In this document: in pieces, positions 6,758 through 7,795 of the stretch
Layout: the number at the start of each line of letters is the position of its first letter
Numbering within the stretch: the first letter of the stretch is position 1
Assembly: GCF_030013205.1 (NCBI RefSeq)
Contig: NZ_CP122648.1
DNA: 64,000 nucleotides
Direction: 5' to 3' (one strand)
Source of the DNA: Escherichia coli
GTDB taxonomy: Bacteria; Pseudomonadota; Gammaproteobacteria; Enterobacterales; Enterobacteriaceae
The notes under the pieces: model-generated
Seen by the model: the letters and a program-made list of their open reading frames with translations, nothing else
What the model was told of the DNA's origin: nothing
The model's database searches: none
Program-made: the position numbers and the translations under genes

Positions 6758-7141
6758 TTATCGCCTCAACTGAAAATGCGGTCCGTCTTTCAGTGTTTTC
6801 CAGTCCCCGCCCCATTCGATGGCAGTTCCCAGCTCTGCGGCAGCCTGCTTAAATGCCTGCGCTATTTTCTCGTACAGAGGCCAGTCCCATGACACCTGGC
6901 TGCCAACCCAGGCAACAACATCCACCGCATCACCGGTCAGGTGGCGGCTGTTCATGGTCTGGCTTTTCCCTTCCGCGACCAGCTGTTTCTGGCGTTCTTT
7001 CGTGCGCAGCCCTTCCGTAATACCGAAATCAACCTCCGTCAGCTCCAGCGCACGGCGAACGACAGCAACCAGCTGTGGTTTAACGCCCTCCAGATTCTTT
7101 TCGCTGCGACGACTAAATCTGAATTTACCCGACATATTCAC
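6758..7141 (-). CDS. Endolysin, peptidase M15 family (T5-type L-alanyl-D-glutamate peptidase)
   Basis: 127 aa; SEKNLEGVKPQLVAVVRRALEL...DFGITEGLRT...SRHLTGDAVDV matches the T5 endolysin pattern as recalled. Confidence 0.8.
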   Translation of the reverse strand: MNMSGKFRFSRRSEKNLEGVKPQLVAVVRRALELTEVDFGITEGLRTKERQKQLVAEGKSQTMNSRHLTGDAVDVVAWVGSQVSWDWPLYEKIAQAFKQAAAELGTAIEWGGDWKTLKDGPHFQLRR

Positions 7142-7413
7142 CTCAACAATGGAAAGATTTTTGTGACGTTCCCGCGCGCGCGTATCACCAGCACGCAGAA
7201 CAGCAGATTAAAAAACACTTCAGGCCAGCCCGTTGCTAACGGGCGACCACACAGATAGCTGAGGGGCGCAAAGGCATACAGCAGCATCAGCAGCCAGGCC
7301 AGCCATGACATCAGCGGTTTATGTCTGGAATCACGGCGACGATAAAAAAAGAACGTCAGCACGATAACCGTGCATAACGCCACATTCAGCAATCCGGGAA
7401 GGTTACTTAACAT
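7138..7413 (-). CDS. Small membrane protein in the lysis cassette (holin or antiholin-like)
   Basis: 91 aa, two or three hydrophobic helices; start overlaps the holin-like gene and stop overlaps the endolysin start. Confidence 0.45.
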   Translation of the reverse strand: MLSNLPGLLNVALCTVIVLTFFFYRRRDSRHKPLMSWLAWLLMLLYAFAPLSYLCGRPLATGWPEVFFNLLFCVLVIRARGNVTKIFPLLR

Positions 7414-7795
7414 TGCCGCCTCCTCCGCCCCTCAGGCGGGAGAACAGGCCGGACACCAGTGATGCGATATCCTGCTGGTGGATGAATGACAGAATCTTCA
7501 CTGACACCACCGATACCAGCACCGCACACAGCGCATCTGCCGATGTACCGTCATACCCTGTTTTTGATGTAATCCAGGCTGACAGCACACGTGCTCCCAG
7601 CACGCCGACGATAAACGACACCAGAAAATGCGCCGCCACACGCCAGGCGGAAATCTTCTGCGGCACAGTTGCCACAAACAAAGCCCCCGCGAACGCACCA
7701 AACACAATCCCGAAATCCGTTCCGGTGAACAGCCCGAATACCGTCGCCCCTCCGAGCGCAGCCGCCGTGCCGGAACCGGATAAGGGTTCAGACAT
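7403..7795 (-). CDS. Putative holin
   Basis: 130 aa, glycine-rich hydrophobic helices, charged C-terminus, first gene of the holin - membrane protein - endolysin series. Confidence 0.5.
   Translation of the reverse strand: MSEPLSGSGTAAALGGATVFGLFTGTDFGIVFGAFAGALFVATVPQKISAWRVAAHFLVSFIVGVLGARVLSAWITSKTGYDGTSADALCAVLVSVVSVKILSFIHQQDIASLVSGLFSRLRGGGGGNVK

Follow-up and report, generated by a model that had tools for sequence, protein, structure and literature searches.

Why should a phage lysis cassette with intact holin and endolysin genes carry no spanin gene, and is such a cassette still within reach of late transcription? Both questions are raised by a prophage locus in a stretch of 64,000 nucleotides from Escherichia coli (RefSeq assembly GCF_030013205.1, contig NZ_CP122648.1). 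This whole stretch is the window of our analysis and all coordinates refer to it unless another record is named. The lysis genes occupy its minus strand between positions 7795 and 6758 and are followed on the opposite strand by an ais-like gene. Our analysis suggests that the locus is a lysis module of the phiP27 type within a decayed lambdoid prophage of a porcine-type E. coli, and that its usual fourth gene, coding for a small lipoprotein, has been lost to the ais-like gene, which is a moron (a cargo gene). We consider this reading to be probable, and the evidence for it, as well as the alternatives to it, are described below.

The cassette consists of three open reading frames (ORFs), all of them intact. 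The first-pass annotation described them as an overlapping set of two membrane proteins and an M15 endolysin, a description which is borne out by the ORFs and by their Pfam and PHROG matches (Table 1). The first holin-family protein (130 aa) possesses three to four hydrophobic segments and is 87% identical to L28 of phiP27, while the second (91 aa) has three such segments and is 97% identical to phiP27 L29. The ORFs of these two proteins overlap by 11 nt, and the Shine-Dalgarno sequence of the second, GGAGGAGG, sits within the 3' end of the first. The overlap between the second holin gene and the endolysin gene is 4 nt; with the endolysin start given by RefSeq there is a gap of 2 nt instead. 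A literature search on PF05449 and PF16931 returned nothing useful.

The endolysin matches PF13539 Peptidase_M15_4 (E 3e-12) and the endolysin family phrog_465 (E 2.5e-75). Its nearest relatives of solved structure in a phmmer search are 23ri, 8q2g and Serratia ChiX (5opz), with E-values around 1e-43 (7e-43 for 5opz), and the T5 endolysin (EndoT5, 2mxz) is a weaker match in the structural database (E 3e-23). Given this last match, it was fair to call the enzyme a T5-type M15 endolysin. EndoT5 and ChiX, both M15C L-Ala-D-Glu peptidases, belong by sequence to the same fold family as the window enzyme, which is nearer to the ChiX/8q2g type than to T5 and has different genomic partners. The motifs SRHLxGxAVDV and GPH, which make up the H..D...H metal-binding pattern, are conserved in the alignment with the solved relatives, and we take their residues to be the zinc ligands. 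The protein is assigned as an M15C-type peptidase with predicted L-Ala-D-Glu bond specificity. Its peak hydropathy over 19 residues is 0.94, without a signal or signal-arrest-release (SAR) segment, and the N-terminal SAR domain of the pinholin/SAR-endolysin class was not found in it. It should thus be a cytoplasmic, holin-dependent enzyme and not a SAR endolysin. Differences from the phiP27 endolysin are mostly synonymous (97% protein identity). A Phage_holin_8 protein first, an overlapping Phage_holin_3_7 protein second and a cytoplasmic M15 endolysin third is the gene order of the phiP27-type module.

The same gene trio is present as L28-L30 in phiP27, a phage carrying Shiga toxin 2e (Stx2e), with the same overlaps, the same hairpin ahead of the first holin gene, 91.7% nucleotide identity and likewise no Rz/Rz1. 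However, phiP27 is complete and inducible and carries stx2e upstream, and it keeps an unannotated gene for a 60-aa lipoprotein (20679-20858) about 0.5 kb downstream; the window copy has lost this gene, carries the ais-like gene and belongs to a defective prophage. Among 279 Stx phages, 277 have been reported to carry a gene of the Rz family; the two without one make up the Stx2e/phiP27 cluster, whose endolysin is a metallopeptidase and whose holin is of the classical kind (Pinto et al., PMC8136144). The cassette type is therefore already known, and known to lack Rz/Rz1.

Our search for a spanin gene was negative in every form in which such a gene could be recognised. A six-frame lipobox scan of positions 5100-8350 from every start codon (ATG, GTG and TTG, with CTG and ATT added in a relaxed pass) gave only one match, of 27 aa and not credible, and a very relaxed scan of 5600-8100 gave no ORF with a signal peptide. 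No ORF with the features of an inner-membrane spanin (i-spanin: N-terminal transmembrane domain, type-II inner-membrane topology, periplasmic coiled coil) is present within 5678-8100. The six-frame scans also gave no lipobox ORF embedded in, overlapping or adjoining any i-spanin gene, as expected for the outer-membrane member (o-spanin) of a two-component pair. A unimolecular spanin like T1 gp11, with a lipobox and a C-terminal transmembrane domain, was likewise not found, the scans having given no credible lipobox ORF. In tblastn searches of the whole window, lambda Rz had no match, Rz1 had matches of chance level only (E at least 0.13), and the phiP27-type lipoprotein (phrog_7528) gave nothing significant. 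The same scanner recovered its positive controls, Rz1 in the related locus L077 and Bor in L087, and of the 17 classes of downstream context on which it was run 15 yielded the lipoprotein, so the missing spanin is not a blind spot of the method. The first-pass annotation had stated that no Rz/Rz1-like pair follows the endolysin, and this statement holds. The embedded or alternative-frame Rz1-like ORF that it suggested as a check is rejected, the six-frame scans from all starts being empty of credible matches.

What would be expected in this place is indicated by the relatives of the cassette, which comprise 80 loci collected from IMG/VR with the endolysin as query and three phage records. A lipoprotein gene lies 3' of the endolysin gene in 78 of 84 related loci (tblastn), at identical spacing in 53 of them: the ORF begins 14 nt past the endolysin stop and is preceded by an AGGTG Shine-Dalgarno sequence. 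The precursor of 60 aa reads MSRKHWTHRMPRTAAKWALVAILVPFLLVG followed by CVSLDKARQLFDTASQVCEIVDGVRQCLQN. Its lipobox and all three cysteines are invariant among homologs that share 72-95% identity with this sequence, which is taken from phiP27-type relatives. The family, phrog_7528, is annotated as 'unknown function' and matched no family in Pfam or NCBIfam scans; it is confined to Enterobacteriaceae, where nearly all of its members carry the label 'hypothetical' and a few are called just 'Lipoprotein'. In phiP27, pPE4 and many RefSeq genomes the ORF is not annotated at all. The pPE4 record (L004; PP818812.1, 'Actinobacillus phage vB_Apl-pPE4') holds the E. coli cassette together with the lipoprotein gene at 89% nucleotide and 97% protein identity, and the Actinobacillus host stated for it appears doubtful.

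Association of the lipoprotein gene with the module is close. Every sequenced phage with the M15 cassette carries it, and among complete E. coli genomes it is found in 286, as against 303 with the cassette. It also accompanies a version of the two-holin module in which the endolysin is of the GH108 type (UTAK-3). In this E. coli strain (L089, positions 6506-6863) the lipoprotein gene is preceded, at a distance of 1 nt, by an ORF of 37-57 aa whose product has a transmembrane segment at its C-terminus. This product might be the partner of the lipoprotein in the GH108 version, but the M15 version does not have it. Among the 84 loci, the lipoprotein gene is missing only from the window, from four IMG/VR loci of the same arrangement and from L077, where a classical Rz/Rz1 pair fills its slot.

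The manner of the loss is apparent from a comparison with the lipoprotein-bearing locus L072, where the order is endolysin, lipoprotein, a phiP27 L33-like gene, a conserved hairpin and the same DUF1441 terminase gene. The two loci cease to be homologous 8 nt short of the endolysin stop and are homologous again, at 97% identity, from about 5977 onwards, and the segment in between has a GC content of 30-40% in the window, compared with 52-58% in the lysis genes. This comparison indicates that the ais-like moron has replaced about 680 bp of ancestral sequence, made up of the lipoprotein gene and one adjoining gene. The ais-like gene has the usual marks of a lambdoid moron, namely its own terminator, the opposite strand, a deviant GC content and a clean replacement relative to sibling phages. 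As far as the aligned loci indicate, the absence of the lipoprotein is a secondary loss through moron replacement and not an original property of the cassette. The first-pass annotation had placed the ais-like gene in the position of the spanin genes on the other strand. Its position and strand are correct; however, what it displaced in comparison with L072 was the lipoprotein gene with its neighbour and not an Rz pair.

The ais-like protein contains an RHG motif and, at its N-terminus, a hydrophobic segment. It scores 208 bits against the NCBIfam subfamily PRK15416 (cut-off 142) and 111 bits against the PmrG equivalog, whose cut-off of 170 is not reached. By these scores it is a paralog within the lipopolysaccharide (LPS) core heptose(II)-phosphate phosphatase subfamily, with a predicted substrate. 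A PADLOC scan of the protein gave no defence-system match. The terminator hairpin of the gene lacks a T tract when read on the minus strand.

Replacement at this point is not peculiar to the window, since the slot behind the endolysin is a hotspot for cargo. The LT-IIb prophage (SerU-LTIIb) carries enterotoxin genes (eltIIb) in this slot and E. coli VG12A2 carries bor, in both cases with the same two-holin module and without the lipoprotein, but with a GH108 endolysin in place of the M15 enzyme. In lambda, too, bor lies on the opposite strand between lysis and packaging genes, which is the position of the ais-like gene in the window. The hairpin at the boundary where homology resumes is about 97% conserved in many relatives with differing flanks, where it stands upstream of HNH or terminase genes; its counterpart in phiP27 is at 7181-7219 of L001. 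It has no match in Rfam and could be a module-boundary recombination site, or a signal for RNA processing or termination.

Table 1. Coordinates of the lysis module, of the segment that replaced its fourth gene and of neighbouring features, by position in the window.
Feature	Position	Strand	Details
Deletion scar	3297..5184	-	108-nt terminase-large remnant fused to C-terminal part of J
Terminase small subunit	5184..5678	-	DUF1441, phrog_141
Conserved hairpin	5928..5989	-	-36.3 kcal/mol, z -7.9; boundary where homology resumes, upstream of packaging genes
Replacement segment	5977..6765		789 bp; homology break relative to lipoprotein-bearing relatives
ais/pmrG-like gene	6093..6686	+	RefSeq start 6111, 191 aa; moron
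Terminator of ais-like gene	6721..6752	+	Hairpin then T run; 6 nt beyond endolysin stop
Endolysin	6758..7141	-	127 aa from GTG; RefSeq start is ATG 7135
Holin 2	7138..7413	-	91 aa; PF05449 Phage_holin_3_7 (E 1.2e-21), phrog_217 holin
Holin 1	7403..7795	-	130 aa; PF16931 Phage_holin_8 (E 5.7e-24), phrog_198 holin
Proximal hairpin	7821..7836	-	GGGCCGCTGGTGGCCC then T6; ~25 nt upstream of holin ATG
Distal hairpins	7933..7991	-	7991-7972 and 7950-7933; jointly -26.2 kcal/mol, z -6.9
tRNA-Gly(UCC)	8254..8328	-	Same strand as lysis genes; promoter-like site 8470-8443
AraC-family regulator	8746..9596	-	Split into 207-aa and 66-aa ORFs
Candidate PR'/leader/tR'	9611..9705	-	~95-bp element conserved in many relatives, phiP27 among them
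Cargo between Q and PR'	9726..11179	+	Low GC (30-39%); hairpin adjoining Q stop
DUF6731 protein	9768-10709	+	313 aa; in Q-PR' cargo
122-aa ORF	10788-11156	+	No Pfam or PADLOC match
Antiterminator Q	11180..11545	-	121 aa; PF06530, E 5e-52

The prophage around the cassette is defective and no longer makes particles. It has lost the whole of its head genes and the greater part of its tail genes, as seen from the RefSeq annotation in comparison with the intact order in strain LR-21-1; the first-pass annotation of the cassette is silent on this loss. The J portion of the fusion at the deletion scar, 5108..3297, comprises the C-terminal 603 codons of the tail-tip protein. Further decay is evident from a truncated rusA and from the split AraC-family gene. 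Positions 5100-8400 of the window are 100% identical to a prfC-adjacent locus of E. coli K_EC180 and of several porcine enterotoxigenic E. coli (ETEC) and O139 strains; in all, eight genomes of porcine strains share the locus at 100% identity. W13-16, ETEC6333, ETEC6334 and ETEC1701 appear to keep a longer remnant of the large terminase gene (terL), so decay differs between the strains.

The same arrangement is also present in prophages that are better preserved. LR-21-1 carries an identical ais-like protein in the same arrangement within a complete-looking prophage at the proA/thrW site, which extends from the integrase gene to J and a further tail gene (where the fetched region ends) without pseudogene flags. 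The fetched part yielded neither a credible lipobox ORF nor a homolog of Rz or Rz1, and nothing in this prophage was significantly similar to the phiP27 lipoprotein. At least four porcine ETEC genomes have the identical ais-like protein and the same arrangement with terL intact, and in ETEC1717 the arrangement lies in a nearly complete prophage at the Qin site. Judging from these genomes, phages with the lipoprotein-less module may be, or may recently have been, viable without a recognisable spanin.

Whether late transcription still reaches the lysis genes was doubted in the first-pass annotation, on the grounds of two terminator-like hairpins upstream and of the distance of 3.4 kb from Q to the holin start, with cargo in between. 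The hairpins are present, but they are three and not two, and they are no obstacle peculiar to this locus. Of 87 loci, 41 match the proximal one exactly over 33 nt, among them the LT-IIb prophage, pPE4 and the inducible phage phiP27, and this hairpin is thus native to the cassette. Deletion of the ortholog of the 130-aa holin has been reported to abolish Stx2e release induced by enrofloxacin, and a plasmid copy restored it (PLoS Pathogens 2025, PMC12571312); the knockout primer KanR_FW of that study contains the proximal hairpin. Since this hairpin precedes a holin ortholog that acts after SOS induction and also occurs in phiP27, such hairpins are normal features of the module. The distal hairpins probably end the tRNA-Gly unit and insulate the lysis genes from it. 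Most likely, we infer, the hairpins hold the lysis genes silent until Q-modified RNA polymerase arrives.

Although the distance to Q and the cargo are both real, the premise drawn from them is wrong, as transcription would start not at Q but at a candidate late promoter, PR', located at about 9665 and 1.87 kb from the holin gene. The candidate has a -10-like TAATCT at 9671-9666, from 9664 an almost invariant leader beginning TTAAGAGTGGTTAC, and a tR' hairpin (9633-9617) followed by a T run, of which the stem is kept and the loop varies between loci. Ahead of the -10, loci with different Q alleles differ in sequence. When the 3' end of Q joined directly to the 9611-9705 element was used as a query, a single contiguous match was obtained in 16 E. 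coli genomes. UTAK-3 has the order Q, PR' element (directly after the Q stop), tRNAs, two holins and endolysin, and a 56-nt core of the element is shared by some 2,600 complete E. coli genomes, that of K-12 among them. An Rfam scan of 5000-12000 (E <= 1) returned the tRNA only, the leader matching no family. We regard the element as a putative PR' with leader and tR', for which Q-dependent read-through is predicted. Because Q acts in trans at PR', the cargo between them lies outside the transcript path. A PADLOC scan of the DUF6731 pair in this cargo gave no defence-system match. The path from PR' to the holin gene, all on one strand, contains tR', the split AraC-family gene, tRNA-Gly and three terminators. 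The AraC-family gene is a passenger of the late operon between PR' and tRNA-Gly, and an intact version of 315 aa is present in LR-21-1 and ETEC1717.

It is therefore necessary to consider whether the cassette is a silent relic which late transcription no longer reaches, on account of the cargo between Q and PR', the broken AraC-family gene and four terminators. The clear decay of the prophage (terL-J deletion, truncated rusA, split AraC-family gene) and the hairpin directly after the Q stop are in line with such a relic. The PR' call rests on position and conservation, the -35 region is weak, and expression and lytic activity of the cassette are predicted from sequence. On the other side, Q works in trans, and the leader and tR' are intact and near consensus. 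The intact prophage of LR-21-1 has these terminators as well, and phiP27 has the proximal one; moreover, the three lysis ORFs are intact in a locus that is the same to the last nucleotide in eight porcine-strain genomes. We consider a silent relic to be unlikely, with a chance of about one in four.

For the cassette as a functional module, the anatomy of the locus and the holin-ortholog experiment provide the basis, and the remaining steps would be as follows. On SOS induction, Q would modify RNA polymerase at PR', and the modified polymerase would read through tR', the split AraC-family gene, tRNA-Gly and the three terminators into the cassette. The holin-family proteins would then permeabilise the inner membrane, and the cytoplasmic M15 L-Ala-D-Glu peptidase would reach and cut the murein. 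In the ancestral module the fourth gene, now replaced, would have supplied the 60-aa precursor of an outer-membrane lipoprotein of 30 residues with three invariant cysteines; with its loss the module encodes no step dedicated to the outer membrane. A phenotype like that of lambda Rz/Rz1 mutants is expected, in which lysis would still occur in ordinary shaken culture, but in the presence of millimolar divalent cations cells would arrest as spheres bounded by the outer membrane. The window cassette could kill or lyse the cell, or release its contents. For phage release, the question of the missing spanin is largely moot because the head and tail genes are deleted. E. coli W13-16, whose locus matches that of the window at 100%, has the lipoprotein gene at another site in the chromosome (NZ_CP080235.1, 1241973-1242158), so the missing function could come in trans from another prophage.

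The order of functions in this scheme is that of lambda (Q-PR'-tR' ... S-R-Rz/Rz1-bor-cos), where terminators are likewise overcome by Q. In contrast to lambda, the window has cargo inserted between Q and PR' and no Rz/Rz1, and neither its holins nor its endolysin are related to S or R, the endolysin being a peptidase and not a transglycosylase.

The role of the lost lipoprotein also bears on our reading. Kongari et al. (2018) listed the lipoprotein as the o-spanin of phiP27, paired with an i-spanin of 64 aa, and reported for this pair the shortest periplasmic length of any spanin (62 residues) and no relatives in their set (PMC6139136). We reject the i-spanin candidate: it starts with TTG, has no PHROG match, lies opposite an ORF that does have PHROG support, and leaves no room for itself in the 53 loci in which the lipoprotein gene directly follows the endolysin gene. 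It is probably not a gene, and the published call of a two-component spanin is then probably half wrong. For the pair as located in phiP27 (L001, 6193-6387 and 6506-6706), we find an o-spanin ORF of 60 aa instead of 51 aa.

Several facts accordingly weigh against a lytic role of the lipoprotein and hence against our reading. The label 'o-spanin' is an assignment by Kongari et al. only; the mature lipoprotein, at 30 residues, is too short for spanning the periplasm; and no conserved type-II membrane partner is encoded downstream of it, where the genes vary (HNH, ParB-like, terminases). The lipoprotein-less form occurs in complete or nearly complete-looking prophages on three backbones, which argues that the module works without the lipoprotein, and its loss may be without effect on lysis. 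These facts, together with the rejected i-spanin and the independent losses in the LT-IIb and VG12A2 prophages, are what would be expected if the two-holin module had never depended on a spanin. The lipoprotein would in that case have no part in lysis; it could, for example, serve in exclusion or in the masking of a receptor, or be simply a moron. Its loss would cost nothing, and rupture of the outer membrane would come about by other means or not be needed. However, such independence does not readily explain the tight linkage described above, with the ORF 14 nt past the endolysin stop under its own Shine-Dalgarno sequence, in nearly all related loci and with either type of endolysin. Nor does it explain why a classical Rz/Rz1 pair occupies exactly the lipoprotein slot in L077, and the cases of loss that were closely examined lie, LR-21-1 excepted, in damaged prophages. 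We therefore consider a module that never needed a spanin to be unlikely, though it deserves to be kept in view to the same degree as the silent relic. A role of the lipoprotein in outer-membrane disruption, judged from its position alone, is plausible.

Loss of a dedicated spanin would be of less consequence if a non-canonical disruptor acted on the outer membrane, either one of the holin-family proteins or a small cationic peptide. About 13-15% of the phages of Gram-negative hosts have no recognisable spanins, so the phenomenon itself is not new, and phage phiKT has a peptide (disruptin gp28) in place of a spanin (PMC6139136; bioRxiv 10.1101/515445). As in the window, the holin and endolysin genes of such phages are recognisable and no lipoprotein ORF is present in any frame; unlike in phiKT, the absence of a spanin in the window is demonstrably secondary and no gene for a disruptin-like peptide is evident. 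The presence of two holin-family genes where one would do might point to an additional function. However, both membrane proteins match established holin families over their full length, the only unassigned small ORFs on the minus strand cross terminator hairpins or the replacement junction, and the endolysin is without a cationic amphipathic tail. We hold a disruptor of this kind to be very unlikely.

Least probable of all, with only a slight chance of being right, is that the ais-like phosphatase itself does the work of the spanin, in that loss of the heptose(II) phosphate from the LPS core would weaken divalent-cation bridging of the outer membrane until loss of murein bursts the cell: the gene sits in exactly the lipoprotein slot, the module is accompanied by this same protein on at least three prophage backbones, and the phenotype of lambda Rz/Rz1 mutants depends on divalent cations, but the opposite strand, own terminator and foreign GC content are those of a lysogenic-conversion moron and not of a late gene, and we know of no experiment that links Ais-type enzymes to lysis.

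A phiP27-type module that has lost its lipoprotein gene to a moron also raises the prospect that the ais-bearing, lipoprotein-less form serves a viable temperate coliphage, for which LR-21-1 and the porcine ETEC prophages are the candidates, and that this phage lyses its host without any spanin. We think this improbable, more so than a silent relic but less so than a special disruptor. If true, either the module needs no spanin or the LPS-core phosphatase weakens the outer membrane. It would provide a natural, genetically tractable E. coli system for spanin-independent disruption of the outer membrane, and a direct test of the role of the orphan 30-residue lipoprotein.

As for the window itself, the feature is what remains of the lysis module of a dead prophage, and there is a simple history behind the absence of a spanin. 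The wider significance lies with the phiP27-type module, which releases Stx2e in porcine Shiga toxin-producing E. coli: its lipoprotein has no credible partner that would account with it for the outer-membrane step. The natural variants with and without the lipoprotein gene in otherwise near-identical prophages offer a ready comparison for the function of this lipoprotein.

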